Assembly (NCBI RefSeq): GCF_042648445.1
Contig: NZ_JBHRYB010000001.1
Location: forward strand, 626,711-690,710
Direction of reading: 5' to 3'
DNA length: 64,000 bases
DNA from: Bacterioplanoides pacificum
GTDB lineage: Bacteria; Pseudomonadota; Gammaproteobacteria; Pseudomonadales; Oceanobacteraceae
Below, one piece after another: positions 39,351 through 63,928 of the stretch (position 1 is the first letter of the stretch; each line of letters begins with the position of its first letter). The translations under genes and the position numbers were made by a program. A model generated the notes under the pieces. The model saw only the letters and a program-made list of their open reading frames with translations, had not been told where the DNA came from and did no database searches.

Positions 39351-39357
39351 GGATCAG

Positions 39358-39430: not shown

Positions 39431-39480
39431 TTAATACCCCCATATATACCCCCATGTTTATTGGGGTGGGGGGTATTGGC
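39431..39480. repeat. G/C-tract inverted repeat AATACCCCC…GGGGGGTATT; putative left attachment/integrase-binding site
   Basis: aatacccccatatatacccccatgtttattggggtggggggtattgg. The GTGGGGG(G)TATTGG part recurs at 53085-53098, next to int. Confidence 0.4.
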
Positions 39481-42068: not shown

Positions 42069-42235
42069 AACATCCTCTTCCTGACTATTTATCTTGAATC
42101 AGTGGCTGGGTTAGTAGCTGACCCACTGAGTTGACAGCTTTTTGCCAGCGGCCTAAAGTCGCCACCAACACGCCCCCGGCCTCTTGGTGGCCAGCAACCT
42201 ACGCTGAGGCTTTTTGCACCCCTAAGGCGTCTGCG

Positions 42236-43858: not shown

Positions 43859-43960
43859 AGTCTGTTTCCGTACATAACCAGCGCACTCCTGCGCTGGATT
43901 CTTGTGGTTGCCTTGTATTTAACAGTCAGTGTCGTGTGTTGGTTGAATTGGGTTCATTGC

Positions 43961-47331: not shown

Positions 47332-47352
47332 GGGGAGGTTCTACCTTCTGTG

Positions 47353-47423
47353 GTCGCGGGCATGGCCCGCTCCTACGTGTTATCTGTTGTGTTTTTGTTC
47401 GCGGGCATGGCCGCACCTACGTT
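47353..47423. repeat. two REP-like palindromic elements
   Basis: The perfect palindrome gcgggcATGgcccgc, plus a degenerate second copy ~45 bp downstream, in the hsdR-hsdM intergenic region. Confidence 0.55.
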
Positions 47424-47453
47424 ATGCCAGGGTGGTGGCAGAAAGCCGGTAGT

Positions 47454-49952
47454 TTAACCGGCTTCGTCGTTGTAGAGGGTATTTTCCAGTTCACGCAGTG
47501 CTTGTTCGTAGCCACTTTTGTCGCCGAAGGCGTTGATCAGCTCCATGCCGGTTCCCAGTTTGTCGAATGGGGGAAGCTGCAGAATCTTGATGTCTTCGAT
47601 GCTCTGTACGCCGGTGTCGGCGTATTTATCAAGCAGGGTGTCGAGTACGGTTTGCGCCTGCTTACTGTAGCGGTCGAAGATGTTACGCCGGCGTTTGGCT
47701 TGTACGGCGCGCTGCTTGCGGGTGAGGGCTGGCTGGTCGTATACGATGTGGGTAATCACATCGAAGGGGTCGGGTTCGTCGCCGAGTTTGCCTTTAAGGT
47801 CGTCGATCAGGTCGTCCCAGGAAACGCCCTGGGCGGTCAGTTCGTCGATAACCGCTTGTTTGCGTTCGGCTTCGTTCCAGCGTTTGAGGAAATCGCTGAG
47901 GGTGGCGTAATGGCCCTGCACCGACTTGCGGGTGAAGTCGGTGAGGTTTTCGGTAATGAGTTTGCCATCGCTGTCGAGATGCTGAATGCGCTGGTCGATG
48001 ATGCTGAACTCGACGTCGCCAATGCGGAATTTTTTCTTCGGCTCGCGTGGCTCGTCACCGGGTTCCCAGGGGCCTGTTCCGGTATCTGCGCCACTATTGC
48101 CCGATGAGGTGCCGTATTCGCCTTCCGGTTCTTTGATGCCGGTTGGCTGTTCAGTACCGTTTTCGTTTGTCGGGTCGGGCGGCAGAATATCGTCGTTATC
48201 ACTGGGGACGTATATCTGTTCGGGGTCGCCGTCGAATTTTTCATCGGCGAACAGTTCCGTCGCTTTCTTAAAATCGAGAATGGTAAACCACTGCTTGCCG
48301 TAGGCTTCGTCGATACGGGTGCCGCGGCCAATAATCTGTTTAAACTCGGTCATCGACTGTATGCGCTGGTCGAGCACTACCAGTTTGCAGGTTTTGGCAT
48401 CGACGCCGGTGGTCATCAACTTACTGGTACAGGCTATAACCGGATAGGGTTCTTCCGGATCGATAAAGTGGTCGAGTTCGGCTTTGCCTTCTTTGTCGTC
48501 GCCGGTGATGCGCATAACGTACTTACGGTTTTTGGCGACCTGCTCCGGGTTCAGGTTAACCAGTAGCTGGCGCATACGCTCTGCGTGGTCGATGTTTTCG
48601 CAGAAGACGATGGTTTTCTGCATAGGGTCGGTTTTTCGCATGTATTCGGTGATGGTCTGGGCAACCAGCAGGGTACGCTGGTCCATAACGATATTTTTAT
48701 CGAAATCGCGCTGGTTGTAGATGCGGTCGTCGATCAGCTGGCCGCTTTTGTCTTTCTGCCCTTTGTTCGGACGCCAGCCCTGCAGGTCTTTATCGAAATC
48801 GACACGAATAACTTTGTAGGGGGCCAGGTAACCGTCGTCGATGCCCTGTTTCAGTGAGTAGGTGTAAACGGGTTCTCCAAAGTAGTGGATGTTGGATACT
48901 TCTTTGGTTTCTTTGGGCGTGGCGGTGAGGCCGATGTGGGTGGCGCTGTCAAAGTATTCGAGAATTGCCCGCCATGCTGAGTCTTCTGCGGCACTGCCGC
49001 GATGGCACTCGTCGATCACAATCAGATCGAAGAAATCGGGTGAGAACTGTTTGTAGACGTTGCGTTCTTCTTCGGTGCCACTCAGGGCCTGATACAGACC
49101 GAGGTAGATTTCATAGGAGGTGTCTACCTTGTTGACCCGGTCTTTGTCTTTTTTAACGGCGAGTTCGATATCCAGCTTTTTGCCGTTGCGTTCCATACCG
49201 CCACCTCGTGGCGATAGCTTGGCCATGGCGCCAGCGAAGGGTTTGAAGTCGTTGTTCATGGTCTGGTCGACCAGAATGTTGCGGTCGGCCAGGAACAGAA
49301 TGCGTTTCTTCTGTTTCGACTTCCACAAACGCCAGATTATCTGAAAAGCGGTGTAGGTTTTGCCGGTACCGGTGGCCATAACCAGCAGAATACGGTCTTG
49401 CCCTTTGGCGACGGCTTCAATGGTGCGGTTAATGGCCACCATCTGGTAATAGCGCGGCGTTCTGTCGTTGGCGGCTTCGTGATAGGGCTGGCTCATGGCG
49501 GCCTGACCATCCGGGATATCTTTCCAGCGGCAATAGGCTGCCCACAGGGTATCGGGGCCTGGTAATTCGCTCAGAGCAATTTCGGTTTCTACTTGTGGGT
49601 AGATCAGCCCGTGCGGGTCACGGAACAGGAAGCTATCGCCATTACTGCTGATGGCGAAGGGCACGTCCAGCTTTTCGGCATAATCCATCGCTTGCTGCAT
49701 ACCGTCACCAACGCGGTGCTTGTTGTCTTTGGCTTCGATAACGGCAATGGGCTTGGCTTTCTGGTAGCAGAGAACATAGTCGGCCCGGCGTGGGGCCTGG
49801 CGGCTGTGCATTCGGCCACGCACGACGATACGGCCATCGCTGACAGAAAATTCTTCATAGACCTGGGTCTGGATATCCCAGCCAGCGCTGATAATGGCAG
49901 GTGTGATGTACTTGGTGCGGATATCCGTTTCGGTCAGGCTGCGCTTATCCAT
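47454..49952 (-). CDS. hsdR: type I R-M restriction subunit HsdR (helicase/endonuclease)
   Basis: 832 aa. N-terminal PD-(D/E)xK-like region, Walker A MATGTGKTYTA, DEAH-like IVIDECHR, and helicase C motifs (QIIGRGTR). Confidence 0.9.
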   Translation of the reverse strand: MDKRSLTETDIRTKYITPAIISAGWDIQTQVYEEFSVSDGRIVVRGRMHSRQAPRRADYVLCYQKAKPIAVIEAKDNKHRVGDGMQQAMDYAEKLDVPFAISSNGDSFLFRDPHGLIYPQVETEIALSELPGPDTLWAAYCRWKDIPDGQAAMSQPYHEAANDRTPRYYQMVAINRTIEAVAKGQDRILLVMATGTGKTYTAFQIIWRLWKSKQKKRILFLADRNILVDQTMNNDFKPFAGAMAKLSPRGGGMERNGKKLDIELAVKKDKDRVNKVDTSYEIYLGLYQALSGTEEERNVYKQFSPDFFDLIVIDECHRGSAAEDSAWRAILEYFDSATHIGLTATPKETKEVSNIHYFGEPVYTYSLKQGIDDGYLAPYKVIRVDFDKDLQGWRPNKGQKDKSGQLIDDRIYNQRDFDKNIVMDQRTLLVAQTITEYMRKTDPMQKTIVFCENIDHAERMRQLLVNLNPEQVAKNRKYVMRITGDDKEGKAELDHFIDPEEPYPVIACTSKLMTTGVDAKTCKLVVLDQRIQSMTEFKQIIGRGTRIDEAYGKQWFTILDFKKATELFADEKFDGDPEQIYVPSDNDDILPPDPTNENGTEQPTGIKEPEGEYGTSSGNSGADTGTGPWEPGDEPREPKKKFRIGDVEFSIIDQRIQHLDSDGKLITENLTDFTRKSVQGHYATLSDFLKRWNEAERKQAVIDELTAQGVSWDDLIDDLKGKLGDEPDPFDVITHIVYDQPALTRKQRAVQAKRRRNIFDRYSKQAQTVLDTLLDKYADTGVQSIEDIKILQLPPFDKLGTGMELINAFGDKSGYEQALRELENTLYNDEAG

Positions 49953-50145
49953 GCTGATGGGGTCAACTCCGGTCGCTGAGAATTTAGTTAGCAGGAGTGT
50001 ACTGGAGTTTGCCGGTGCGCTGAAGCCTCTGGGCGGGTTGCGCCAGGGGGTGTAAGAATTTTTGACAGGTGGCTGGCCTCCCCAACGGCACCGTATGCGT
50101 TCTGTTCGCCAGAACGGGCGGTGCCCCTTGGTAATCTATAAAGGA

Positions 50146-50279
50146 GTACGCATAGCGGGTAATGCGAGAGTAAAAAGCCGCCGGACTGGTACGCATAGCG
50201 GGTAGTTCAGCATCTTGCTGGTGGAGTGGCCGGTTGTATTGGCCCACATAGCGGGTAGTTTGGTACGCATAGCGGGCAG
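50146..50279. repeat. iteron-like direct repeats (4 copies of ~GTACGCATAGCGGGTAG)
   Basis: Copies at 50146, 50189, 50245 (partial) and 50263. They lie in the intergenic region between the 137-aa gene and the hsdR start. Confidence 0.6.
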
Positions 50280-50287
50280 CGAATTTT

Positions 50288-50701
50288 TTAGTGTTGGTCT
50301 GGTTCTCGGTAAAAACGATACAGTCCACTGGGGGCCTGCGTTTCTTTTACGTCCAGTTTTCCTTTGCATTCATCAATGGCTCGCCATGTTACGGCATACA
50401 GTGAACAGCGGTTTTTACCGCCCTGGCGGGTTTGCTCAATCATGCCGACTTCCTGCAGTTTCTTCAGCGAGCTGTTCAGGGTTCCTTTTGAGTTCCAACC
50501 TTTGTGCTGCAGCTGTGACCAGACGGCATTCAGGTCGCCGTTGTTAAAGCCGGTGAACTGCACGGCAATATCAATCAGGAGTTTTACATCCCAGCCATCC
50601 AATGCGCGATATGCCTCACTGCCGAGTACGCTGTGGGGAATATTCAGAAAGGGCGCATTGCCTTTGCGCCCGTTGGCTTTCGCTCTGCGGTCTTTTGCCA
50701 T
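50288..50701 (-). CDS. hypothetical basic DNA-binding-like protein (possible winged-helix; adjacent to iterons)
   Basis: 137 aa with a basic N-terminus and a wing-like …KLQEVGMIEQTRQGGKNRCSLYAVTW…. Assignment is speculative. Confidence 0.35.
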   Translation of the reverse strand: MAKDRRAKANGRKGNAPFLNIPHSVLGSEAYRALDGWDVKLLIDIAVQFTGFNNGDLNAVWSQLQHKGWNSKGTLNSSLKKLQEVGMIEQTRQGGKNRCSLYAVTWRAIDECKGKLDVKETQAPSGLYRFYREPDQH

Positions 50702-50780
50702 GGTTGGCAGCCTGACGGGTGAGGGTGGAAAACAGGCTGCGGGTTGTTTGCCGGCAGCCGGAAGGTCAGTTCCATGACGG

Positions 50781-51080
50781 TTAATGCGGCAGTAAAAAAT
50801 TCGGGTCGTTGGCGGCCTTCATCAGAAACTCCACGTTTTCGCGCATTCGTGGCGTCAGCGTGTTCAGCACTGTGCTCTGGTCGATCACATGGTAGCGGGC
50901 ATGAGTGCCTCCCACGTGGGGTTCATCCACGGTTTTTATGGCTGCGCCCGCGTTGCGCAGTTCATGTATGACGGTGGACAGACGAGCGTGCTGGTAGTTG
51001 TTGATGGCCTGCCAGCTGGAAATATGCCCCGCCGCCAGCAGATGGGCGATTACGTATTCTTTTTTGCTGAATGACTTCAT
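50781..51080 (-). CDS. small phage-like HTH/winged-helix protein
   Basis: 99 aa, …WQAINNYQHARLSTVIHELRNAGAAIKT… reads as a helix-turn-helix. Overlaps alpA by 4 nt. Confidence 0.4.
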   Translation of the reverse strand: MKSFSKKEYVIAHLLAAGHISSWQAINNYQHARLSTVIHELRNAGAAIKTVDEPHVGGTHARYHVIDQSTVLNTLTPRMRENVEFLMKAANDPNFLLPH

Positions 51081-51334
51081 GCTGCACCTCCCTGCCTACG
51101 GGAAGCGTTGATGCGGCTTTCGATCCAATCATTGATTTCGCTTTCAACCCAGGCAGACGCTCGGGCCCCGAGTTTTACGGATGCAGGGAAGGTACCTTCC
51201 TGAATCATGGCGTGGGCCTGAGAACGGCAGATGCCGACGCGGGGCTGGACGTCTTTCCAGCGCAACAGGCGTGATTGTTGAGTATGGCTGATATTGGTCA
51301 TTGGTTGCCTCCTGTGGGCGTTGTTGGTGACCAA
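51077..51334 (-). CDS. alpA: AlpA-family phage regulatory protein (excisionase-like HTH)
   Basis: …LLRWKDVQPRVGICRSQAHAMIQEGTFPASVKLGARASAWVESEINDWI… is the canonical AlpA signature. Lies downstream of int, as in CP4-57/P4-like elements. Confidence 0.75.
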   Translation of the reverse strand: MVTNNAHRRQPMTNISHTQQSRLLRWKDVQPRVGICRSQAHAMIQEGTFPASVKLGARASAWVESEINDWIESRINASRRQGGAA

Positions 51335-51358
51335 AACAGCTTCATCTGTGAGTTGGTA

Positions 51359-51883
51359 TTAATGTAGGGGAATAAAAATTTCCTTTTTCCCGTTGCTTTT
51401 TTGTACGACCCAGCGTTCGTAGTAACGCCTTACTGTATCGGGGAATTTATTGAGTGATTTTGCTACTACTTCGTAAGCTTTGGATTTGTTTGTCGTATTC
51501 TTTAGTTCAAACTTTACCATGCCAATAATTTGCAAAATTTTTTGCTCCGTCATGGAGTTAGGTCTGCCGGATATTTTTTGTTCCATACCAAGACTCTGCA
51601 AAGCCAGATTCTCTGAAAAGGCTTCACTAAATAGGCGCTCTAGCAGCTCGCCAAATAGGCCAATGTTTCCAGTAGTAAGCTTGTCTTTAAGGAAAGCGAC
51701 GAAGCAGTACCAATCGAAAGGTGTCAGACGGGTGGTGTCTAGCGTGGAATTAATTTGACAATATTTCTCGTAAGCAGCATCTATCATCGTTGCTGCGTCA
51801 TCATAGTCATCCCAATAGAATCCAATGATGTATAGCAGTTTCTTTGTATGGCCTTCAGGCGGCAATGATTTCCAGTCCAGCAT
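51359..51883 (-). CDS. hypothetical phage/island protein
   Basis: 174-aa ORF between int and alpA with no motif recognised. Confidence 0.4.
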   Translation of the reverse strand: MLDWKSLPPEGHTKKLLYIIGFYWDDYDDAATMIDAAYEKYCQINSTLDTTRLTPFDWYCFVAFLKDKLTTGNIGLFGELLERLFSEAFSENLALQSLGMEQKISGRPNSMTEQKILQIIGMVKFELKNTTNKSKAYEVVAKSLNKFPDTVRRYYERWVVQKSNGKKEIFIPLH

Positions 51884-51907
51884 TCTCAGAGTCCATTCAT
51901 GTTGCTG

Positions 51908-53071
51908 TTATAGATTATCCGCCCACCACTGAAGCATTTCCGTTCGTTCTTCCAGATAGTCCGCCCGGTTGTAGGCTTTACGTATCTGATTGCGCTCTTC
52001 GTGGGCCAGTTGTTTTTCGATCACATCCGGCCTGAATCCGGCTTCATTCAATACGGTTGAAGCGGTGGAGCGTAATCCGTGAGTGGTGGTGTGCTCTTTG
52101 AAGCCTGTGCGTTTAAGCAGCACCAAAAAGGCATTTTCAGACAAAGGCTTCTCAATGGTATTGGGGCTTCGCAAAAGCCATTCAGTGTGGCCCGTGTGTT
52201 GTTTAAGCTCTGTCAGTACATCAATGGCTTGACGGCTTAAGGGTATCAGGTGGTCTGTCTTCATTTTCATACGCTCTGCCGGAATTAGCCAAAGCTGCTT
52301 TTCAAAGTCGATTTCACTCCAGCGACCAAAGCGTACTTCACCGGTTCGGGTCATGGTCAGTATTAGCAGCTTAAGTCCTAGCTTTACTACCGGGTGGCCT
52401 CCGTATGCGTCGATACTGGTCAAGAAACTCCCCATCATTGCGAATGGTAAGGCACGCTGATGGTTGACGGCTGGTACGGCTTTTAGCGCTGGAGTGATAC
52501 CTGTTACCGGGTTGTTTTCGACGAGTCCTTCAGCAATGGCAAATGCAAAGATACCTTGAAGGTAATTTTTTACTTTGCGGGTGGTTTCACCAATGCCTTC
52601 GTTTTCCATTAAGCGCAGTACAGTCAATACGTCGGCGCTGGTAATCTGGTGAATGGGTTTGTCGCTAAGGTAGGGCATTAAGCGCCGGTCAATCATCTGG
52701 CGAACTTTGAGCGCGTAGCGCGGTGTCCATCTGGGGGTATTGAGTTCGTGCCAGCGGTAAGCCAACACCCCAAAAAGATTCTGAGCCTGAATACGTTGTA
52801 GGCGCTTGGCTTCCATGCGTTCGTCGGTGGGATCAATGCCTTTGCGAATCTTAGATTTGGCAATGTCGCGTTCTTGTCTGGCTTCCTTTAACGAATAATC
52901 GGGGTATTGGCCGATGGTATAGGCTTTCTCCTTGCCATCTAGGCGGTATTTTACCCGCCACGATTTGATCCCTGTTTTGCTAACCATCAAATACAAGCCG
53001 CCAGCATCAGATAGCTTATATCCCTTATCCTTGGGCTTTGCGGCTTTGATAGCGGCAACGGTCAATGACAT
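51908..53071 (-). CDS. int: tyrosine-type site-specific integrase (P4-like, DUF4102 arm-binding N-terminus)
   Basis: MSLTVAAIKAAKPKDKGYKLSDAGGLYLMV… N-terminus and the C-terminal catalytic region R…HGLR…Y. The start at 53071 is preceded by AAGGAGA. Confidence 0.85.
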   Translation of the reverse strand: MSLTVAAIKAAKPKDKGYKLSDAGGLYLMVSKTGIKSWRVKYRLDGKEKAYTIGQYPDYSLKEARQERDIAKSKIRKGIDPTDERMEAKRLQRIQAQNLFGVLAYRWHELNTPRWTPRYALKVRQMIDRRLMPYLSDKPIHQITSADVLTVLRLMENEGIGETTRKVKNYLQGIFAFAIAEGLVENNPVTGITPALKAVPAVNHQRALPFAMMGSFLTSIDAYGGHPVVKLGLKLLILTMTRTGEVRFGRWSEIDFEKQLWLIPAERMKMKTDHLIPLSRQAIDVLTELKQHTGHTEWLLRSPNTIEKPLSENAFLVLLKRTGFKEHTTTHGLRSTASTVLNEAGFRPDVIEKQLAHEERNQIRKAYNRADYLEERTEMLQWWADNL

Positions 53072-53361
53072 TGGTTGTTCTCCTTGTGGGGGTATTGGAG
53101 CTACCCGAACACGATACCCCCTGTGCAATACCCCTAACTAGGAGCGGTTGTCCATAGACGTTGCTGGTCGCCTGAGAATATGAATGTCAGTATTAATGCG
53201 GCTTTGGGGGTGGTTTAGAGGTTGTTTCATGTGCGGTAAAGCAGGAAGTGAGCAAATTTCTAGATAACTTGAGCTGATTGTTCCGTATATAGAAGTAATG
53301 GTTGTTAATGAACCTCTATTGGATCTAACAATAAGAGTCAATAATGGCGCCTCAGCTTTTC

Positions 53362-53835
53362 CTAACCAGTGAACTCTAATCTGTATGTAAAGCTATATGG
53401 CCTCGACAGATTACTCAGTAGACAACCGGCTATGCCTCCTCCTAGAAGAAAAAGAAGCCAATTACCGCTTTTAGTATAGCTACCAGCTACTCCTCCTAAT
53501 ATCGCACCAATTAAAGTAGCTTGCAGCTGAGGACTATACTTCCTACCCTGAATTAGCATATATGCAATATGTTCACAGTTATTACCGACTACTTCGTACC
53601 GATGATCATTGTTCAAGATACGCTCCAACCTCTTGGTCAATAATGAGTGATCATCTACATGGCTACGAATTACCTTGACTGGTTTCCCTTCGGAATACTG
53701 ATCAACAGAGATTAGTTCAACATTGTTCTGAGGGCTGTTATGCAAAACTTGCCCATTGCCCAGGTAAACCCCTGCATGCTGAATAATGCCTTTGCTTCTA
53801 TATAGCAAATCACCGGATTTCAGATTATTATTCAT
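53362..53835 (-). CDS. PLAAT/LRAT-like (NlpC/P60 superfamily) phospholipase A/acyltransferase with C-terminal TM anchor
   Basis: HAGVYLGNGQVLH matches the PLAAT H-box (HWAIYVGDGYVVH) and NNCEHIAYML matches NCEHF with a catalytic Cys. The C-terminus has two hydrophobic helices. 157 aa. Confidence 0.7.
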   Translation of the reverse strand: MNNNLKSGDLLYRSKGIIQHAGVYLGNGQVLHNSPQNNVELISVDQYSEGKPVKVIRSHVDDHSLLTKRLERILNNDHRYEVVGNNCEHIAYMLIQGRKYSPQLQATLIGAILGGVAGSYTKSGNWLLFLLGGGIAGCLLSNLSRPYSFTYRLEFTG

Positions 53836-53852
53836 TTACAAACTTCCTATTC

Positions 53853-53888
53853 ATTTACGTTTTACGCAAATATACATTAAACGTAAAT
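53853..53888. promoter_or_regulatory. candidate operator: 10-bp perfect inverted repeat ATTTACGTTT…AAACGTAAAT (plus direct repeat TTCATTTAC)
   Basis: Lies in the divergent intergenic region between the PLAAT-like gene and the XRE regulator. Confidence 0.45.
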
Positions 53889-53933
53889 AGTTGCAAACTT
53901 GCTTTGTCCTAAATAGTATAAATTTGGTGATTT

Positions 53934-54314
53934 ATGAATGCTGAACAAACGTCCTATTCTGCTGTTTTGGGTGTTGTCTTGAGCAACCTCCGTAAAGAGC
54001 GCCGTATTGAACAAGGCGAAATGGCGGCAAGAATGGGGCTTTCTCAAGCAAGCTATAGTCGTCTTGAAAGTGGAAAATCAGCTTTTTCTATCGATCAGAT
54101 GTATCAGGCTGCCTCTGCACTAGGAATAGATGAGAGTGAAATTACAACTCGTCTAAATTCCACAGTTATCCAGCTAAATGCCAATGGAGTACGCGTCGTC
54201 CCTCAGTTAAGGGGAAACACCACACAAGCGAAACAGGAAAGCTCTGATGTCGGAAATTTTATCGCTGGAGCAGCGTTAGGTGGATTACTAATTGGACTAC
54301 TGAGCCGGAAATAA
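53934..54314 (+). CDS. XRE/Cro-C1-type HTH regulator with C-terminal transmembrane helix
   Basis: …EMAARMGLSQASYSRLESGK… is an HTH_XRE. The C-terminus is FIAGAALGGLLIGLLSRK. Its stop lies 18 nt before the giant STAND gene. Confidence 0.65.
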   Translation: MNAEQTSYSAVLGVVLSNLRKERRIEQGEMAARMGLSQASYSRLESGKSAFSIDQMYQAASALGIDESEITTRLNSTVIQLNANGVRVVPQLRGNTTQAKQESSDVGNFIAGAALGGLLIGLLSRK

Positions 54315-54331
54315 CACAGACAGGATGTCAA

Positions 54332-57300
54332 ATGGCAAGCAAAAGCAATAACAGAAAGACAGATTCATCGGAGCTAGTTCGCTACTCCAGAGCAGGAGAC
54401 ACCTTTCACTATCGCTGGGCTGCGAGACGCTGTTTACGTCTGCTTGATTTCAATTCAGACCTAACCCACATCACTATTGAGGGCTCTAAAGAAGCAAAAC
54501 TCGGCGGCGAATATGTCATTGATACAGCTGAATACAGCTCGGACAATGGTAAAGGATCATCAGTCGCTTATTTTCAACTAAAACATTCAACTACACGCTG
54601 CAATGAAAACTTCACTCTTAGCGGCCTGAAAGAAACTATTATCGGATTTTCTAACAGATATAAAGATCTCCAAGAAAAAAACCATAGTTTTACATCTATC
54701 CAATTCCTAATAATAACTAACCGACCAATAAGCCCTAGATTTAAAGAGTCTATTAACAAGTTAGCAAGGGGTGAATCCGGTGGAAAAAGCTTCGACGATA
54801 CGATAAAGGCTTACTCAAAACTTACGGGAAAGAAGTTACAAGAGTTTTGCGGTCTCCTAAAGTTAGTTGACGGTGAAGGTAATTATGATGCACAAAAACA
54901 TGCTTTACACCGAGAAATAGCCAATTTGGCCTGTGATAGCAGTGATGTTAGTCAAATGCTAAAGCTTGTCGAACTAGTACGCGAGAGAATAGAGCCTGGA
55001 GCCAAAAAACAAGAAATTGACAGAAATGACGTTCTAGAGCAATTTGGTCTAACGTCTGAAAAAGACTTGTTCCCAGCCCCCCCCTTATTTGAAAAGCTAC
55101 CTTCAATTATTGAGCGTGAACAGTATGATAGCCTTTATAAAGAAATAGTAGATTCTACATCTCCATTTACGATCCTATCTGCTGTAGGTGGCACCGGTAA
55201 ATCAATAACATGTAATCATTTAGTTGATAGGTTTGTTAATGGTTCCCTAGCTATTGCTTATGATTGTTTTGGCAATGGCGGATATAGAAGATTAAGTGGA
55301 CATAGGCATCGCACATATGATGCTTATATACAGGTTGCAAATGAACTTGCTCAAAAGGGATTGTGCGAACCCATAATTCCAAGTAGCAGGAATCACGATG
55401 ACAGGCTTACAAAGTTATTCCTATCGCGATTATCTCAGTCTATCGAAAAACTAAAAGAGAGAAACGAGAATGCTCTGTTAATTATTTTATTTGATGCTGT
55501 TGATAATGCAGAAATGGCCGCTACAGAGTTTGGGGACAGGTGCTTTGCCAGTCACCTATTGAAAGAAAACATTCCAGACGGATGCCGAGTCGTTTACCTC
55601 TCTCGTCCTGAACGGATAAAATTATTTTCCCCATCAGAAAAAATTCCACAAATTGAAATAAAGCCATTTAGTGATAATGAGACTCTATTCCATCTTAAAA
55701 CAAAGTACCCAGAAGCCACTCTTGAAAATGCTGTTGAATATCGACGACTAACTAATGGAAACCCCCGGGTTCAGGCTAATGCACTAGCATTGAATAAGAA
55801 CTCGGTCGACGACTTATTAACTCATTTTAGCGCTAGGGAGAAAACGGTAAATGACCTAATTGAAGACCAGCTTAATAATGCTTTGACAACAATAAAGGAG
55901 CAATACCCTAATAGCTTCAGAACTCATGTCGAAGATATCTGTACAGGTCTTGCGACACTACCACCATTTGTACCGGTTGAAGTACTTGCAGCAGCTGCTG
56001 AAGTTAGTGTTTCGGCCGTGAAAAGCTTTATCTCTGACCTAGGTCGGCCTCTTTGGTTAACGGATAACTATGTACAATTTAGGGATGAACCAACTGAAAG
56101 CTGGTTCGTCTCAACATTCAGCGCTAAGAAAAGGCAGATAAAGGCTTATATTTCTAGATTGAAGCCTTTAGCTGGCAAATTCTCCTATGTTGCCGAAGCC
56201 TTGCCATCTCTTTTACTAAAAGCAGGGCAATACAAAGAGATTATTCGTCTTGCTTTGTCGGAAGATATGTTACCGACTGACAACCCAGTTGAATCGAGAA
56301 GCATCCAGGTTTACCGATTACAATTTGCATTCAAGGCAGCTCTAAAGAATAAGAAGTATTTAGATGCCTGTAAGCTTGCGCTACGTGCGGGAGAAGAAGT
56401 TTCAGGAACGGATCGGCAAATAGAGCTATTAACTAAAAATATTGATCTCGCTACTCAGTATTTATCTCCACAGCGCATCATGGATCTAGCTCATCAGCGT
56501 GAAATGAGCGGTGAATGGAATGGCTCAGAAACCCTATATTCATCAGCACTATTAGCACCAATGCCAGAATGTGAGGGTGAGGCGCGTAGTTATTTAAGGT
56601 CAGGTTGGCATTGGTTAACACGTTATATTGAAGATAGAGATAGTAGAGATGAACGATCCCACTATAGAGATAGTATTAAAGACATCGACATATTAGTCAT
56701 GTTTTATAGCTGCTTCTACCTTGATGGTTATAAAGCAGCGATTGATTTTATCTTACGCTGTAAACCACCTGAGCTGATTTTCAGAATAGTATCTGATTTT
56801 TCTTCAAGGATGGTAGATAAAGCTGAATATGAAGTATTAGAGCTAATGGCTCATTATGGTAAAAATTGCCCTCCACTGGTTCTTGCGATAACACATGAAT
56901 TACTTAAGATTGGCCGTATACCAGACAAAAAGTGCATTACTCGAGCACTAAATAAAATTGTAGGGCCTGGAAAGTGGCTTATTAAGCCGAAAGGTGGATT
57001 CGATAATCACAACATTAGCACTTCTGCTTATCTGTCATTGCTCGAAGCCTCGATAATCCATAAGCTCCCTCTGAAAAATATCAAGCGAGCACTAAATTAC
57101 TATATTGATGGGCCTAGAGCATATTCTATAAATTCTGATTGGGATGGCAGTAGTAGAAGTTGTTTTATGAGGTCTATATCAATTAGAGCCTGTATAAATA
57201 ATTCTTTTGATTTTTCAGTCGAATCTGTCATTCCAAAGTCATGGTACTTAGACAGCAATGATTATCATGATAGAGAGGAAGTTAAGGGGGCTAAAGAAGC

Positions 57301-60300
57301 TATTTCTATATTGCTACCTTGGTATTTGATTCGGGCAAGGCTTTTATCTGGAAATAGAATATCTATAGAAGATTGGCATCAAAAAGCTAAGGAGGGGTCG
57401 TCCCGATTATTGAGAAGTCGATATAAAACATATGACCCGCTACCGTTTGAGATTACAACAGCCAGGTTCTTCAATCTGGCAATTTCACAAACAAATGTTG
57501 ATAAAGAACTAGATGATATTGCTAGTGGTATTAATGATAACAGCATTAGTTTTCGCTATCCAGATAAAGTTAACGCCCTAAGAATAGCGAATCGGCAGAT
57601 TAGACTCACTAGGATTAGCGATATTTTAGAAGAGTCATGCTATAAGACTGCAAAGATAGTTGATGAAGAAGAATCTCCTATAGATCATGCAAATAATTTC
57701 ATTAATCTGTCTAGGGCCGTTTTATCTATAAGTAAAGCCGATGCAGAAATTTATTTTGAAGAAGCAATAGCAGCAGTCTCTCGATTTGGTGATGAAGCCT
57801 ATGAAAGGTGGATGGCGGTGAATTCAATAGCCAAACGATCGGCCGAAAAGTTAACAAATCGTAGTAAACATGCATATCGTTATATGCGTTGTGCAGAGCT
57901 TATAGGTGACACAATCGGTAGAGAAAAGAAATGGGATAGAGATGGTGCTATGGAAACGTGCTTTCATCTTTCCCCAGAATCGGCCTTCGCAATTGCTAGC
58001 AGATGGAAAGATAGGGATGTTGGACGTTCAGGTCGAATGCTTGCGTCCTTACTTCAAACCGCTGTTGTAGAAAATGCCATTTCTCCTTCTGCAGCTTGGT
58101 CACTATCAGTACTTCCTTTTGATTATGATCTCTCCATATTCGCTGAACAATGTATTGAAAGAGAATATGATGAAAGCAGGCGGAAAATCATCTTCGATTC
58201 TCTAATATCCGATTTTAGAAAGAAGGGGATTACTGGTAAGCCTTGGAAGAAAATGAGTGAAATCTCTGAGAAATATGGACTATTTAATGAAGTATTAAAT
58301 GATCTAGCTATTTTGATGAGAGAAAAGTCAGAGGGAGGATCTGAAACTGGTCGTAATTTTCTTATTAAAGAACCCAAAGAAAGCGACCACCAAATTGGTC
58401 TGTACGATGATATCAATATTTTATCTGATGAAGGATTGCAAGAAGTTCTAGAGCGCTTTGAGTCGTTGGATTTTCCTAAAGATGTAGACGCTCCATGGAA
58501 ATATGCAGCCAGTAAGCTAACAGCAGGAAATGCTACAAAATTTCTTTTCCTACTCGCAAATTCTGAATTTCTTAATGCCTATCATATTCAAAACGCTATA
58601 AATTGGATTCCTGATAGGTTAAAACGAAAACCCAGCGTCATTAAAATTTGGCCGGATATCATAAAAATTATAGCTAAACGTTTTCCAGAAGAATTCACTC
58701 GCTGGTATAGCCGGGATAGAATACTCGGAGAAATAGGATCTGACGTTACTACAGTAAATGCTATACGAGAAGGGGTTCTCGAAGGTCTATCGGAGTCCAA
58801 TGGACTAGAATCTGCCAGTACATTTTTTGGATTTGTAGATTACTACGTTAACTCTCTTTCATCCTCTGATGCAGCAAAACTTTTAGATTATGCACTGACG
58901 AGATTTGAATTACATATCAATGATGGGTATTCAGATGGGAATTGGTCTTCTAGTTTAGAGCCACCGGAAAATATTGTTCAGTCATTTACTGGATATCTTT
59001 GGGCAGCACTTGGTTCCCCTCGAGCTTCAGAACACTGGTGCGCAATGCACGCAGTAAGGCGTTTATATCAACTGCGCTGCGAGGAGGAGTTAGATGCACT
59101 GCTTGAATGGATGATCTCTGATAGCGCAGGGTCTTTCATCTATAAAGGCTATCCATTTTATAACATGCATGCTAAGCAGCATCTCTTAATGGCTTTAGCG
59201 CGTTGTGCTATTGAAGATCCATCCGTTATTGTAGGAAAGCATAAAATATTCTCAAATATTGCACTAAATGAACAGCATATCTTGATCCAAAAGTACGCTG
59301 CAGATATTGCTCGATCAATAGCCAAAATCTTCCCTAGCGCTCATACGGAAAAAGTTCTTGTTCAGTTAGAAGAAATCGAAAAATCACCTTTCCAGATTGA
59401 ATATTCGGATAACTACAATGAAAAACGTGATACCCCGTGGCACAAAGATAAGAGTATCGCTCTAGATACAGGTTTATATTTTGCTCACGATTTTGATCGA
59501 TACTGGTTTGAACCACTTGGTGAGGTTTTCAAAGTACCAGGATCGCAAGTTGAAGACTTAGCAGCCGATGTAATTATGAACGACTGGAAGCTACCAGTCT
59601 CTGAGCGCTTTATTCGTGATCCACGCCAAGATATTTGGAATTCTTACCGGGATCAGAGCACATACCACAGTCACTCTGGTTATCCAAAAACGGCAACATA
59701 TAGTTTCTATCTTTCGTATCATTCTATGATGGTGGCTGCGGCAAAATTATTGAATGCAATGCCTACTTTCCATTCTAGAGATTGGCATGAAAATCAATGG
59801 GAAGATTGGCTACATAGACACCTGTTAACAAGAAAAGATCAGTATTGGCTATCTGATACAAGAGGTTTTATACCCGCACATCGTAGAGCCTGGACAGACG
59901 ATAAAACAGATAAAGACTGGCGCTGGCAAGTTTTACCTAGGGATTTCTTAGAAGTTCTCTTGCTTCAAAGAGAAAAAGATACCTGGCTTAACGTAGCTGG
60001 GTCGTGGGATGAATATTACAATGGCCACAATGAACATATATCTGTCTCTAGCAGGCTAGTTCCGAGTTGGGCATCTAGCTCACTGCAGAGAGCTATGACT
60101 CAATACCGATCTCACTGGCCTGGTACAAGTAGCTTAGATGCATTTAGTGGACAAGAAGAGAATGATAATTGTAATGGAAATCCGTTTAGATTGAGTTGTT
60201 GGTATAGTAATGCTTATCAAGACAACGGAGTTGATGAACTGGATCCCTATGCAGGTTGCATTGGATATCCTCCGTGCACAATCCATCAAGATGTTATGAG

Positions 60301-60664
60301 CCAACTTGATATATATTCAGACAATGAATCATGCCAATGGATTGATTCAAATGGGGCTGTCATTGCGCATGGTCAGATTTGGAGTGAAGACAAGCCTTTG
60401 CGAGAAGACGAGGAGTATTGTTGTAGAGGCAACCGATTACAGGCCTCATTAAGCTTCTTAAAAAAAATGTGTAAAAAGTTGGATGTAGATTTAGCAATAC
60501 AAGTAGATATAAAAAGAGATTTAGTCGGAATACATAGAGATAGGAACGATGATATTGGATATCTCCCCCCATATAGAAAAATTTTTATCCTCTCCAGAAA
60601 TGGAGTGCTCAAAGACACAAGCACGACTTTTAGGCTTAGGGAACAAGTTAGCGAAGAACTTTGA
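54332..60664 (+). CDS. 2110-aa STAND-class NTPase with N-terminal Cap4-like (DUF4297, D…QxK) nuclease domain and long helical-repeat C-terminus (Avs-like antiviral ATPase)
   Basis: N-terminal …RAGDTFHYRWAARRCLRLL…EYVIDTAE…AYFQLKHS…. Walker A SAVGGTGKS (~aa 288) and Walker B LIILFDAVDNAE (~aa 385). ~1600 aa of W/Y-rich alpha-helical repeats follow. Low GC. Confidence 0.65.
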   Translation: MASKSNNRKTDSSELVRYSRAGDTFHYRWAARRCLRLLDFNSDLTHITIEGSKEAKLGGEYVIDTAEYSSDNGKGSSVAYFQLKHSTTRCNENFTLSGLKETIIGFSNRYKDLQEKNHSFTSIQFLIITNRPISPRFKESINKLARGESGGKSFDDTIKAYSKLTGKKLQEFCGLLKLVDGEGNYDAQKHALHREIANLACDSSDVSQMLKLVELVRERIEPGAKKQEIDRNDVLEQFGLTSEKDLFPAPPLFEKLPSIIEREQYDSLYKEIVDSTSPFTILSAVGGTGKSITCNHLVDRFVNGSLAIAYDCFGNGGYRRLSGHRHRTYDAYIQVANELAQKGLCEPIIPSSRNHDDRLTKLFLSRLSQSIEKLKERNENALLIILFDAVDNAEMAATEFGDRCFASHLLKENIPDGCRVVYLSRPERIKLFSPSEKIPQIEIKPFSDNETLFHLKTKYPEATLENAVEYRRLTNGNPRVQANALALNKNSVDDLLTHFSAREKTVNDLIEDQLNNALTTIKEQYPNSFRTHVEDICTGLATLPPFVPVEVLAAAAEVSVSAVKSFISDLGRPLWLTDNYVQFRDEPTESWFVSTFSAKKRQIKAYISRLKPLAGKFSYVAEALPSLLLKAGQYKEIIRLALSEDMLPTDNPVESRSIQVYRLQFAFKAALKNKKYLDACKLALRAGEEVSGTDRQIELLTKNIDLATQYLSPQRIMDLAHQREMSGEWNGSETLYSSALLAPMPECEGEARSYLRSGWHWLTRYIEDRDSRDERSHYRDSIKDIDILVMFYSCFYLDGYKAAIDFILRCKPPELIFRIVSDFSSRMVDKAEYEVLELMAHYGKNCPPLVLAITHELLKIGRIPDKKCITRALNKIVGPGKWLIKPKGGFDNHNISTSAYLSLLEASIIHKLPLKNIKRALNYYIDGPRAYSINSDWDGSSRSCFMRSISIRACINNSFDFSVESVIPKSWYLDSNDYHDREEVKGAKEAISILLPWYLIRARLLSGNRISIEDWHQKAKEGSSRLLRSRYKTYDPLPFEITTARFFNLAISQTNVDKELDDIASGINDNSISFRYPDKVNALRIANRQIRLTRISDILEESCYKTAKIVDEEESPIDHANNFINLSRAVLSISKADAEIYFEEAIAAVSRFGDEAYERWMAVNSIAKRSAEKLTNRSKHAYRYMRCAELIGDTIGREKKWDRDGAMETCFHLSPESAFAIASRWKDRDVGRSGRMLASLLQTAVVENAISPSAAWSLSVLPFDYDLSIFAEQCIEREYDESRRKIIFDSLISDFRKKGITGKPWKKMSEISEKYGLFNEVLNDLAILMREKSEGGSETGRNFLIKEPKESDHQIGLYDDINILSDEGLQEVLERFESLDFPKDVDAPWKYAASKLTAGNATKFLFLLANSEFLNAYHIQNAINWIPDRLKRKPSVIKIWPDIIKIIAKRFPEEFTRWYSRDRILGEIGSDVTTVNAIREGVLEGLSESNGLESASTFFGFVDYYVNSLSSSDAAKLLDYALTRFELHINDGYSDGNWSSSLEPPENIVQSFTGYLWAALGSPRASEHWCAMHAVRRLYQLRCEEELDALLEWMISDSAGSFIYKGYPFYNMHAKQHLLMALARCAIEDPSVIVGKHKIFSNIALNEQHILIQKYAADIARSIAKIFPSAHTEKVLVQLEEIEKSPFQIEYSDNYNEKRDTPWHKDKSIALDTGLYFAHDFDRYWFEPLGEVFKVPGSQVEDLAADVIMNDWKLPVSERFIRDPRQDIWNSYRDQSTYHSHSGYPKTATYSFYLSYHSMMVAAAKLLNAMPTFHSRDWHENQWEDWLHRHLLTRKDQYWLSDTRGFIPAHRRAWTDDKTDKDWRWQVLPRDFLEVLLLQREKDTWLNVAGSWDEYYNGHNEHISVSSRLVPSWASSSLQRAMTQYRSHWPGTSSLDAFSGQEENDNCNGNPFRLSCWYSNAYQDNGVDELDPYAGCIGYPPCTIHQDVMSQLDIYSDNESCQWIDSNGAVIAHGQIWSEDKPLREDEEYCCRGNRLQASLSFLKKMCKKLDVDLAIQVDIKRDLVGIHRDRNDDIGYLPPYRKIFILSRNGVLKDTSTTFRLREQVSEEL

Positions 60665-61271
60665 AGGTGATAATGGAGATGAATTAAGCGAATGGATGTC
60701 TCATTATATCGCCGAAAAAATTCTGGAACTAGAAGTGGCTACTGGTGAAGAGAAAAGATCTTTACAAAAATATTGCTTTGAAGCGATATTGCTACTATGG
60801 AGTCATCAGGCCTATTTCCCTAGTGGATCTAGACCATTTGAAAACTTTGAACCAGTATTCCGAGCTCTTGATCATATAGACCCAGATAGGCCAGGGTATT
60901 CTTATATCAACGAACAACCGGAGGCAAATTCTGATGTCCCTAAAGATATAGACCTATACGTCAAATATATTGTCAATCTTGATGCTACAACAAGAGTGCT
61001 GCTTTCATACTTTGTAGAGCTAGCCATAAGTTCTGCAGCTGACCAGAGCACAAAAGATTGGATTAATAGTCTAGGTGTGGAGACTAGATCAGAGGTACCT
61101 AAAGTTCTTTTGAGTTTTTATAGGGACAGACGTGAGAAATCGGATAAAGACATAGTTGAAGAAAAGATTGAAAAATTGTCTGATCAAATTCGAAAAATCG
61201 ACGCTTTTGTAGATGTTAGCAAAGATATTAGATTAGAATTAGCCAGAAAGATCGAAAATCTGAAAGGCTAA
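60549..61271 (+). CDS. hypothetical helical protein overlapping the 3' end of the giant gene (possible frameshifted C-terminal extension)
   Basis: 240-aa ORF in the +1 frame, starting at ATG 60549 (or 60600). A C6 tract at 60564-60569 sits at the frame junction. Confidence 0.35.
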   Translation: MILDISPHIEKFLSSPEMECSKTQARLLGLGNKLAKNFEGDNGDELSEWMSHYIAEKILELEVATGEEKRSLQKYCFEAILLLWSHQAYFPSGSRPFENFEPVFRALDHIDPDRPGYSYINEQPEANSDVPKDIDLYVKYIVNLDATTRVLLSYFVELAISSAADQSTKDWINSLGVETRSEVPKVLLSFYRDRREKSDKDIVEEKIEKLSDQIRKIDAFVDVSKDIRLELARKIENLKG

Positions 61272-61928
61272 ACTCCACATAATAATTACTAATATAATAG
61301 ATTTCTAGATAGAAATATGAGCAAATAATTACACTCATGGTGACTTCAGGTTATATCCTATGCAGAGATTTATATTACATTCAAGGTTAGTATTTGAATG
61401 ACATGGATTATGAAAATCTATTTCCTTCGATCGCTTTCAGGTTTATTTTGGTTTTCGACTTTCCAAAATTCGACTCGGATTTAAAGAAATGTCGAGTCAA
61501 AGGTCCTTGGGAAAATTTCAATTGATATATTAGTTAAAGCTAATGATTGAGCTTATGAAAAATGTCTAAATCAAGCGGTGGAGGAGGTGGACGAGGCCCA
61601 TCTTCTCATCCTGGCCAGGTGGTAACTGGCCTAGTATAACAGGGAACCCATCTGGCGGAGGGCGAGATAACTCTCCGTTTAAGTAGTTAACTCGCGGCCA
61701 GGCCAGCCGGGCTTCTCCATTCGGAGTGCCTCAGGAAAATAACTATCTAATCAGGTCACCAGCCAGTACGAAAATTTAGGGTGCGGAATTCACATTTCCG
61801 CCGACAGAAAAAATGCTGCCGTTTTCGGCACTTTAAGAAAAATTTGTATTTTTTCCAAATATTTCTATTGCGGTGGATTTGTATCAGGTGATATTGATTA
61901 GGAGTCATTTTTCGTAGAGTAATTATTA

Positions 61929-62489
61929 ATGAGTAAATCCAAATTTAGAACAATTTATGAGAGGGCAATATTTTATATTCAGTATGGCCGATATCCAAAA
62001 ATCTCTACCCTGCTATCAGACTGGAAAAAATCTCCTGATGCGCATTTTCATGGGTACTTTAAAAACTCATTAAAATGGAGCAGTAGGGGGAGTTATGGAT
62101 ATGATATGAGTAATATTAGGTGCCAATATCCATTCGACGGAGTTGGTATTATCATCGGCCATGTCGAGAATGTAACAATGTCTAGGGCCGGAGTTGCGAC
62201 AATAGGGCATTTTGCCGTTGCCTCAAATAATCGTTACGACCTGACAAACAATGTCGAGTATCGTGTGGGTAGGAGTCTAATTCTAGATTTGTTAGATTTT
62301 ATGAGGGATCACAATGCAATTCAGGTTCGTTTTTTAGAGAGTCATAGCAAAAAAATCATGAATTACCGGAAATTTTTCGAGAAAAATGGTATTGCAGAAA
62401 CCGAAAAAGGGTGCTGGACAGTTGATTTATATCCTGATGGTATTATTCCTCATCAGGTTAAAGAATTTTTGCGTATACAATGCGACTGA
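61929..62489 (+). CDS. hypothetical protein (186 aa, low GC)
   Basis: ORF with AT-rich codon usage matching the island. No motif recognised. Confidence 0.4.
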   Translation: MSKSKFRTIYERAIFYIQYGRYPKISTLLSDWKKSPDAHFHGYFKNSLKWSSRGSYGYDMSNIRCQYPFDGVGIIIGHVENVTMSRAGVATIGHFAVASNNRYDLTNNVEYRVGRSLILDLLDFMRDHNAIQVRFLESHSKKIMNYRKFFEKNGIAETEKGCWTVDLYPDGIIPHQVKEFLRIQCD

Positions 62490-63928
62490 TCTCAAGTGCG
62501 GTAGGAGTTACACCTACCGCTATTCACTCGCAACCTACGGAGGTATCGCTCTAGCTCGTTAACTCTCCCATCCTACTCAGCCATCAAAAAGATTTTTTAA
62601 CTAGGTCGCCGAGTGAAGTGTATTCATCAATAGCATAAATTTGCCACTGTATACCAACGAATGTGGGTGGCAGTACTTGTAATAGCTGGGACCGTCCAAT
62701 ATACCGCCGTATACGTCCGGATGAGTCGATGGAATCACTCTCTATCCGGTCAAAAATATTTTGGAAGTAGCAGCCCTAGGTATCGTCAATCTGGCAAATC
62801 CATAGTGGTATCCTGATCTTCTCTAGTATATAGAAGGGAGAGTGCGGAAAAGCTTTGCTTCTGTGCTACAGGAATTGGGGGATATTGGTAGGCTAGGCGG
62901 TGAATAGTTCGCTCTGTTGTTACTCAATTACGATGATGAAGGAGGTGAAGTACATGCAAGGCGAAGACTGTTAAATCTTAGAAGTCTTCTATTTCCAGGC
63001 CTCCTTAGTATCAAAAATGTGACGGCGAGCATCAGTATTGCTACTCGCCACTTGGACTTAAGAGTCGATCGTTCACGCTGATAAGGCAATGCACAGGGTC
63101 GAAAGAAGCTATAGAAACGGCTGCCTACACTGAATAGCTTAGCATTTAGCCCTTCTGGCGGGTTACACCGCCCGTTATCAAATATCTTCTCCATTAATTG
63201 AGTGTGCGAATATTCTGATACTGATTTGTAGATGTTAGGGCAGCAGAAATTTTTGATAACCATACATATTGCTTCGATGAAGTGATCTTTCTTAGCTCTG
63301 GTGCTTAGGTTGTCTATAGCTTCTGGCGTGAGCTATGAGGAGGAAGCAGCCCTCGCAATTAGATAGTGTTTTTTGAATCTTTAGACATGGAACCTTTCTC
63401 GAAATTGAATGCCTCTTGATACTTCTGGAGCCAGGCTATAAATGTTATCAGTCTACCCAAAATTATAAAACCAATGCTGTCTAAAACTTATAAAAAATAA
63501 TAAAGTTTAAAGATTGCCTACGATTTTCTACTTTGATTTTTGAAAAAAGTAAATTTTCAAAGGTGATTTTACATAAATACTTAATCTTTTACGAAGTTGA
63601 TGATTTTCTAGGGCGAACGTGAAAAAAGATTAGTTATCGAATAAATACAGTATTTCGTTAAATACTCTTAGCCTTAAGGGAGAATACGTATTGCTTTTTA
63701 TATTTTTTTTAGCGGATTTCCTGGATGAGGTGGTTTGAAATGCAGCCGGATATACGTTAGAGTTTTTAATGGCTTTGCAAGGGGGTGCCTCCCGAGCTTA
63801 TGCGACGAGATCTAAGGGGTATCTCTTCAGCTACCCTGGAAATCTTAGGCACAGGAAACGCCTGCTTTAAAGCAGGTGTTTCTCTTCTTGGTCAGCTTGA
63901 TAAGTTTCTGAGGTATATGAGGTTTCTT

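Follow-up and report, generated by a model that had tools for sequence, protein, structure and literature searches.

SeAvs3, a protein of the AVAST type 3 kind, binds the large terminase of phages, assembles into a tetramer and degrades double-stranded DNA (dsDNA) with its Cap4 PD-(D/E)xK nuclease (PMC13601566; PMC12803255), acting on terminase and DNA without partners of the LRAT or XRE type (PMC13601566). The permuted branch of the NlpC/P60 enzymes is lipid-directed and includes the bacterial toxic phospholipases Tox-Act1 and TseH, and LRAT-family enzymes elsewhere have ordinary lipid-metabolic roles (PMC12994826). Relatives of both kinds of protein lie next to each other in the window, by which we mean the whole 64,000-nucleotide (nt) stretch of Bacterioplanoides pacificum DNA analysed here (contig NZ_JBHRYB010000001.1, positions 626,711 to 690,710), where a PLAAT/LRAT-like gene is transcribed divergently from a gene for an XRE regulator, which is followed by a giant open reading frame (ORF) and a small overlapping one. 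Comparison with other loci revealed that the LRAT-XRE pair is an independent, tightly linked divergent module, separate from Avs3, and that the two ORFs downstream of it form, as judged by homology, a complete AVAST type 3 system (avs3a and avs3b), a divergent copy of an already described kind. On balance we favour two units standing side by side, a known Avs3ab system and a self-contained LRAT-XRE module that would act in a toxin-antitoxin (TA)-like, abortive-infection or island-stabilising manner. The features of the locus are listed below.

53362–53835, minus strand: LRAT/PLAAT-like gene, 157 amino acids (aa)
53853–53888, no strand: operator-like palindrome ATTTACGTTT-N16-AAACGTAAAT, located by an inverted-repeat search and conserved in 15 loci
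53869–53897, minus strand: promoter-like site of the LRAT gene, with −35 TTTGCA, a 17-nt spacer and −10 TATATT
53934–54314, plus strand: XRE gene, 126 aa, with a Pfam HTH_3 match
54332–60664, plus strand: avs3a, the giant ORF, 2110 aa, with PADLOC, NCBIfam and PDB 8DGC matches
54389–54583, plus strand: nuclease motifs of Avs3a (RAGDTFHYRWAARR box, D64 and Q82-x-K84), placed by alignment with SeAvs3
55187–55204, plus strand: Walker A GGTGKS of Avs3a, aa 286–291, placed by the same alignment
55478–55495, plus strand: Walker B LIILFD of Avs3a, aa 383–388, placed by the same alignment
60549–61271, plus strand: avs3b, the overlapping ORF, 240 aa, with PADLOC and NCBIfam matches
39340–53229, minus strand: integrase and type I restriction-modification (R-M) island of 13.9 kb, adjacent and separate, missing in a second assembly (L001)

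The ORF calls bear out the four genes where an earlier note, made from the letters of the window alone, had placed them, with LRAT divergent from XRE. That note had described a PLAAT/LRAT-like small enzyme, an XRE regulator with a C-terminal membrane segment, a perfect 10-bp operator-like inverted repeat between the two genes, and a giant protein of Avs layout with a D…QxK nuclease of the Cap4 type, a P-loop STAND NTPase and helical repeats, all in an AT-rich block beside an integrase and a type I R-M system. This domain-level interpretation was right on every one of these points, for which the evidence is given below, and the system-level interpretation, in which the Avs protein, the enzyme and the regulator made up one new system, was not supported.

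The Avs3a and Avs3b proteins

The PADLOC model of Avs3a matched the 2110-aa protein with 1461.6 bits over residues 12–2094, and the NCBIfam model NF041816 ("AVAST type 3 anti-phage nuclease/ATPase Avs3a") with 1588.1 bits over residues 16–2093. The sole match among solved structures was SeAvs3 (PDB 8DGC; E = 8.7e-279), which aligned in one co-linear stretch from end to end, with query residues 13–2103 against chain residues 4–2088. D64 of the YVID motif (aa 61–64) and Q82-x-K84 of the FQLK motif (aa 81–84), preceded by the RAGDTFHYRWAARR box at aa 20–33, pair with LID...MQLK in SeAvs3, and the Walker A and Walker B motifs GGTGKS and LIILFD pair with AGVGKS and CIIIDA, respectively. The nature of the nuclease, the STAND class of the NTPase and the helical repeats, which the earlier note had wished to see checked domain by domain, is thus answered by direct homology to a solved and characterised protein. 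Pfam was less informative, with a weak NPHP3_N match (22.8 bits against a cutoff of 24.8), a likewise weak AAA_16 match and no DUF4297 match at E ≤ 0.1 at the N-terminus, so that the Cap4-type assignment of the nuclease rests on the SeAvs3 alignment. Given that its NCBIfam score of 1588.1 bits is below the equivalog cutoff of 2800, we file the protein as a family member and not as an equivalog; over the full length it is 39% identical to a Priestia homologue and 29–30% identical to four others. Taken by its homology, the giant protein is a full-length, divergent Avs3a with a predicted Cap4-type PD-(D/E)xK nuclease, STAND NTPase and helical sensor.

The overlapping 240-aa ORF was matched by the Avs3b models of PADLOC (E = 5.7e-42) and NCBIfam (NF041817; E = 1.5e-38), the latter with 132.9 bits and thus under its cutoff of 200, and it is 32% identical to an annotated Avs3b of Klebsiella from residue 14 onward. 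It starts at an ATG at 60549 with a good AGGA ribosome-binding site and shares 116 nt with the 3′ end of avs3a. Such overlaps are a family trait: the Klebsiella genes share 107 nt, those of Janthinobacterium 35 nt and those of Priestia 14 nt, all in Avs3-type records, of which two are annotated as avs3a/avs3b and one (Priestia) carries no such names. The earlier note had seen an Avs-like giant protein with an overlapping ORF, and the Avs assignment stood; it had not recognised in them the AVAST type 3 pair Avs3a/Avs3b, which is already described.

Like SeAvs3, the window protein is co-linear with the solved chain, carries the same nuclease and Walker motifs and a long helical sensor, and is followed by a small overlapping partner gene. 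It differs in its divergence, both genes scoring below the equivalog cutoffs, in its host, a marine Oceanospirillales-type bacterium, and in its position directly 3′ of a membrane-anchored XRE gene, with 17 nt between the XRE stop codon and the avs3a ATG. Because no terminator was predicted between XRE and avs3a, transcription of avs3ab probably starts at the XRE promoter. As its homology to SeAvs3 predicts, the system would recognise an infecting tailed phage when the C-terminal helical sensor binds the phage's large terminase; tetramerisation would follow, driven by the STAND NTPase, and the N-terminal Cap4-type nuclease would degrade dsDNA, thereby aborting the infection. For the well-characterised Avs3 family, this part of the locus is no more than one further member, divergent and marine.

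The LRAT-like enzyme, the XRE regulator and their linkage

The two genes upstream are the more informative part of the locus. The 157-aa protein matched Pfam LRAT with 39.5 bits, above the cutoff of 24.3, and also matched Pfam NLPC_P60 and, at its C-terminus, the glycine zipper 2TM family. Across 36 homologues, H20, H32 and N86-C87-E88 are invariant and H89 nearly so (≥90%), which gives a His-His-Cys set in permuted order with an NCEH box; these 36 sequences vary too much to serve as a search pattern, and scans were made with a subset of 10. In a Foldseek search with the AlphaFold 2 (AF2) model, which had a predicted local distance difference test (pLDDT) score of 89.5, the best solved matches were H-REV107/PLAAT3, HRASLS2-3 and PLAAT4, with a probability of 1.00 and TM-scores of 0.60–0.66 over the target, those of PLAAT3/H-REV107/HRASLS2-3 being 0.64–0.66. 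The C-terminal hydrophobic part (aa ~102–144) is a glycine-zipper hairpin of two long helices, 102–120 and 126–144. On its modelled fold, the small enzyme is a PLAAT/LRAT-like permuted NlpC/P60 protein with a predicted cytoplasmic catalytic domain, and the conserved residues argue that it is a catalytically active lipid enzyme of the Cys-His-His type, facing the cytoplasm at the inner membrane; by analogy with the family, it may act as an acyltransferase or phospholipase on membrane lipids.

Human PLAAT/HRASLS and LRAT enzymes (PLAAT3, PDB 7ZOM/4DOT) share with it the His-His-Cys set, the NCEH box, the fold (TM-score ~0.66) and a C-terminal membrane anchor. The identity to PLAATs is only 22–24%, however, and their anchor is a single transmembrane helix in place of the glycine-zipper helical hairpin of the window protein. 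Tox-Act1 and TseH belong to the same lipid-directed branch, some members of which are toxic phospholipases; by contrast, the window enzyme is not a secreted effector of a type VI secretion system and has no immunity gene, and is instead paired with a divergent XRE regulator. A divergent homologue in locus L066 (~9480–9890) appears to have Asp in place of the second catalytic His (VLDILP instead of VLHNSP) and to keep the NCEH box, and may be an inactive variant or one of altered chemistry.

The 126-aa regulator has a Pfam HTH_3 domain at its N-terminus (E = 2.5e-11), followed by a conserved linker and a C-terminal hydrophobic segment of 15 residues, FIAGAALGGLLIGLL (aa 109–123), with a mean Kyte-Doolittle hydropathy of 2.31. 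This C-terminal glycine-zipper helix is kept in 11 of 11 homologues from independent genomes. The regulator matched the PADLOC models Control_protein (R-M; 1.7e-07) and, weakly, capH (1.9e-05), and its best NCBIfam match was an XRE-type antitoxin family, below that family's cutoff.

Between the two genes, the perfect 10-bp inverted repeat has its arms at 53853–53862 (ATTTACGTTT) and 53879–53888 (AAACGTAAAT); when the 98-bp spacer was shuffled 2000 times with its dinucleotides preserved, 23 of the shuffled sequences contained an arm of 10 bp or longer, a chance of about 1%. An alignment of 15 divergent intergenic regions, from loci whose proteins share only ~50–70% identity, revealed a conserved core TTTACGTTTAA, a short spacer and ATACATTAAACGTAAAT, followed by TGTCAA, which reads on the LRAT strand as TTGACA, a perfect −35 hexamer. 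The predicted LRAT promoter of the window has its −35 at 53897–53892 and its −10 at 53874–53869, so that the right operator arm falls between the two hexamers and the left arm coincides with the predicted start of LRAT transcription or lies past it. Since the conserved element covers the core promoter of LRAT, we infer that XRE binds the palindrome and represses the LRAT gene. Copies of the half-site number seven in the window against 2.6 expected, a count reached by 3 of 100 shuffles; two of the seven are the operator arms, and none of the remaining five lies upstream of avs3a.

The pairing of LRAT and XRE recurs far beyond this locus. A genomic scan with the LRAT family, at one genome per species, returned 10 loci, in nine of which XRE is adjacent and divergent, and a metagenome scan with the XRE family returned 59 loci, in 54 of which LRAT is immediately upstream and divergent. 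Of the five metagenomic exceptions, one lies on a truncated contig that leaves no room upstream, three are XRE matches that are very weak, and the last is L072, in which the XRE protein is 46% identical and has room upstream, yet no LRAT match is found. In one locus (L008) the LRAT gene is a pseudogene next to an intact XRE. Neither Avs3a nor Avs3b, by contrast, was found near LRAT at any of the 10 genomic loci, nor Avs3a near XRE at any of the 59 metagenomic loci, nor LRAT or an XRE with a membrane helix at any of five other Avs3 loci (plasmids of Klebsiella, Priestia, Janthinobacterium, Shewanella and Acinetobacter). The only further site with all four genes is L001, the second assembly, which belongs to the same species. 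The earlier note had named the absence of the gene triplet from other genomes as a result that would speak against its new Avs, PLAAT and regulator system, and outside this species the triplet is absent from all of these loci. Among the E. coli genomes searched, no near-identical copy of the locus was found. In viral contigs, XRE matched only twice, each time with an LRAT partner, and LRAT gave a single marginal fragment besides; phages are thus not the typical carriers of the pair.

On the Acinetobacter plasmid (L081, NZ_CP015595.1), a plain 68-aa XRE gene (7687–7893) lies 99 nt upstream of Avs3 and co-directional with it; small helix-turn-helix (HTH) genes heading Avs3 operons may thus be recurrent, independently of the LRAT pair. 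An HTH gene and a divergent gene for a 162-aa protein in Acinetobacter were considered as a further copy of the pair and rejected, the HTH protein being this plain XRE and the 162-aa protein unrelated to LRAT.

The company of the pair was examined in 33 non-redundant loci of at least 8 kb, of which 32 have both genes. Type I R-M lies within 10 kb in 19 of the 33 (58%) and a P4-type integrase in seven, and other loci carry Gabija (GajA/GajB), a SIR2 protein, Mrr or GmrSD; one cargo type, a Hachiman-type (HamB-type) helicase, is inserted between the LRAT and XRE genes themselves. In 17 of 32 loci, XRE is followed within 200 nt by a gene in the same direction. This gene is HsdM in nine of the 32, six of these at 26–35 nt, and otherwise includes GajA, Mrr, an RtcR-like CARF protein, an IS240-type transposase and a protein of no assigned family. 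Given that unrelated systems fill the position of Avs3a in other genomes, that position in the window is an exchangeable cargo slot. In 13 of the 32 loci (41%), XRE and the next gene converge, so the pair also stands alone. The pair is patchily distributed, in low-GC, strain-variable DNA.

The non-pandemic Vibrio cholerae assemblies L012–L017 (positions about 1–20462) carry the order HsdR-GmrSD-GmrSD-HsdS-HsdM-Mrr-XRE, facing LRAT, beyond which lie a 509-aa HD_assoc protein and further genes of a defence-like kind (for a DprA-like protein, a DEAD helicase and BrxR), with the sialic-acid (nan) cluster directly next to them; we take this site to correspond to the defence end of VPI-2, in a VPI-2-like island. 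In one of them (L016), a different type I R-M system and an AAA_15/21 ATPase are swapped in, and Mrr-XRE-LRAT is kept. Elsewhere, extra genes are embedded in type I R-M operons downstream of XRE (L050, 8804–11014; L051, 10357–11847), namely PDC-S06, a PADLOC candidate defence protein, and an RtcR-like CARF-AAA-HTH regulator. Literature on LRAT or NlpC with phage defence or R-M gave no description of an LRAT-XRE pair, which is apparently undescribed so far. The only related item was an independent Vibrio pangenome study, where one of the co-occurrence clusters associated with defence contains a gene of the LRAT family together with genes for an integrase and a DNA-binding protein (PMC12409351).

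Possible roles of the LRAT-XRE pair

Our preferred reading of the pair, speculative as it is, is a TA-like, abortive-infection or island-stabilising module, which we favour because of the tight linkage, the repression architecture, the strain-variable low-GC DNA and the locus in which the LRAT gene has decayed beside an intact XRE. XRE would bind the palindrome over the LRAT core promoter and thereby keep the enzyme repressed. The enzyme would be a membrane-anchored Cys-His-His acyltransferase or phospholipase of the lipid-targeting branch, the glycine-zipper helices of both proteins would probably meet in the inner membrane, and de-repression or loss of XRE would unleash damage to membrane lipids by LRAT. 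The module would travel with defence islands, and its XRE transcription unit would often read into downstream cargo, here Avs3.

This arrangement is reminiscent of type II TA systems with XRE antitoxins (HipB, HigA, Y4mF). In both cases a small HTH protein of the XRE type is extended at its C-terminus, the operator is palindromic, and the two genes are tightly linked and reside in mobile DNA or defence islands; in one locus of the pair, the putative toxin has decayed while the XRE gene was kept. The pair differs in that its genes are divergent and form no operon and in that a membrane lipid enzyme takes the place of the putative toxin, to be neutralised at the level of transcription and/or via membrane helices; one LRAT gene, besides, is an orphan without XRE. 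As LRAT and XRE are divergent in all loci examined, and not arranged in the bicistronic operon that marks type II TA, we do not count them among the canonical type II TA systems.

Several points weigh against the picture of a known Avs3ab beside a toxic, self-contained module. Divergent orientation is unusual for type II TA pairs. The LRAT-like protein matched no family of PADLOC-DB v2 at E ≤ 0.1, and because no PADLOC model covers it, the case for its defence role is solely one of guilt by association; about 40% of the loci, moreover, carry no defence gene of the limited reference panel. Locus L002 holds an intact LRAT homologue with neither XRE nor operator, which argues against an obligatorily lethal toxin. 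The transmembrane topology of the XRE helix is uncertain, since the helix spans no more than 15 aa and has positively charged residues at its end. On the Avs3 side, the target specificity of Avs3ab could differ from that of SeAvs3, because both genes score under the NCBIfam equivalog cutoffs (1588 against 2800 and 132.9 against 200).

Put more broadly, and only tentatively, the LRAT-XRE pair with its operator may be an undescribed defence-island module of marine Gammaproteobacteria, including V. cholerae, that is either a lipid-attacking abortive-infection or TA-like system or a membrane-signal-responsive regulator heading exchangeable cargo (type I R-M, Gabija, Avs3). The two-gene module combines bacterial PLAAT-like chemistry, two glycine-zipper anchors and a conserved operator, and recurs at defence-island edges across many marine genera. 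Should it turn out to act in defence or addiction, the known types of anti-phage effector would gain one that acts on membrane lipids and is controlled by a repressor; as a regulator, it would stand beside CapH/CapP as a membrane-linked equivalent. With the pair as a marker, defence cargo could also be sought in marine genomes.

The second of these roles, in its narrower form, is the foremost rival to our preferred reading, and we regard it as possible though rather doubtful. The pair would here be a two-protein transcriptional regulator of the neighbouring immune operon, as are CapH/CapP or ImmR/ImmA, in which the XRE repressor would keep the operon (here avs3ab) silent until the enzyme of papain-like fold, upon a membrane signal, inactivates or modifies it by cleavage or acylation and so induces defence. 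CapH/CapP modules are known upstream of diverse immune operons, and examples of the co-directional genes that follow XRE within 200 nt in 17 of the 32 loci are HsdM, GajA, Mrr and, at 17 nt, Avs3a; the weak PADLOC matches of XRE to capH and to R-M control proteins point the same way, as does the persistence of XRE where LRAT has decayed, and both proteins are membrane-associated and would therefore be in proximity. The resemblance to CapH/CapP, ImmR/ImmA and DdrO/IrrE would extend to a putative XRE repressor with an enzyme partner next to diverse defence operons and to a palindromic operator in the promoter region. However, the partner in those systems is an M78 metallopeptidase, and Pfam and PADLOC searches found no M78 domain in the LRAT-like protein, which is a permuted, lipid-directed NlpC/P60 enzyme. 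Both window proteins are membrane-associated, the conserved operator lies over the partner's own promoter and not clearly over that of XRE or the cargo, and nothing suggests a DNA-damage signal. In the 13 loci with a convergent next gene, moreover, there is no operon to regulate, and Avs3 functions without the pair at the five other loci, as type I R-M presumably does in most cases.

A related comparison is with the controller (C) proteins of R-M systems, which are likewise small XRE HTH proteins heading R-M operons, in keeping with the Control_protein match of 1.7e-07 and the nine of 32 loci with HsdM directly next. By contrast, C proteins are soluble, belong to type II R-M and have no LRAT partner, whereas the window XRE has a membrane helix and its family also occurs beside cargo other than R-M.

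We think it unlikely that the pair has no part in defence and is, for example, an autoregulated unit for membrane-lipid remodelling or envelope stress adaptation that came to lie near defence genes through a recombination or integration hotspot. A P4-type integrase does lie ~230–360 bp from the 3′ end of LRAT in four loci, an island is inserted at that flank relative to L001, some loci hold no recognised defence genes, one LRAT is an orphan without XRE, and LRAT-family enzymes have ordinary lipid-metabolic roles in other organisms. Against this, the pair is patchy and sits in low-GC, strain-variable DNA, and an operator over a consensus-like promoter, with the tight repression that it implies, suggests a dangerous product. 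The 58% of loci with type I R-M within 10 kb also looks to be well above the background, taken as roughly one type I R-M system per genome, this rough figure being the only yardstick.

That LRAT, XRE, Avs3a and Avs3b form one integrated multi-effector system, in which the lipid enzyme would be a second effector or a co-factor of the Avs3 sensor, is very improbable: the four genes are adjacent here and in the second assembly of the species, with the 17-nt gap between XRE and avs3a, but the lack of co-occurrence (Avs3 at none of the 10 genomic and 59 metagenomic pair loci, the pair at none of the five other Avs3 loci) largely refutes it, SeAvs3 acts without such partners, and unrelated systems occupy the Avs3a slot elsewhere.

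The adjacent island and flanking genes

The GC content across 53–64 kb of the window is 0.37–0.42, compared with 0.49–0.57 across 1–39 kb, and because the low-GC block runs to the window end, the right boundary of the Avs3-bearing region falls outside the view. All four genes are present in L001 with 100% identity over 10.6 kb (53230–63835), compared with 98.7% on the core side of the window (29471–39339), and this difference between the flanks suggests that the Avs3 block was recently exchanged.

The intervening 13.9-kb island (39340–53229), the edge of which is 132 bp beyond the LRAT stop codon, contains a P4-type integrase, AlpA, a winged-helix HTH protein, type I R-M HsdR/M/S, a 540-aa protein of no assigned family and a NucS_C-like 367-aa protein. 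It is absent from L001, relative to which it is inserted exactly at the LRAT flank. Since L001 lacks the island and nevertheless has the Avs3 side at 100% identity, the island is a separate variable insertion and not the vehicle of Avs3. Neither junction of the island has att-type direct repeats of at least 9 bp, and no tRNA or Rfam RNA that could be an integrase target was found at the LRAT 3′ flank or the junction in the window.

The P4-type integrase near the LRAT 3′ end recurs in four independent loci (window 53138–53361; L006, 7016–7326; L010, 7947–8260; L033, 9113–9470), and integration may recur at this flank, or islands may have their edge here. Downstream of avs3b, a 186-aa ORF at 61929–62489 is kept in L001 and has no Pfam, PADLOC or NCBIfam match. 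The core-side neighbours (29471–39339) include an 1815-aa protein with DUF3686, DUF7902 and AAA_5 domains (for example, 33061–38508), and beside this ATPase lie a rhomboid protease, 650-aa and 227-aa proteins of no assigned family, PspA and DUF2170. A NucS_C-like protein of ~360 aa stands beside type I R-M methyltransferase genes in two unrelated genomes (window 40965–42068; L010, 5902–6969) and may be an R-M accessory nuclease.

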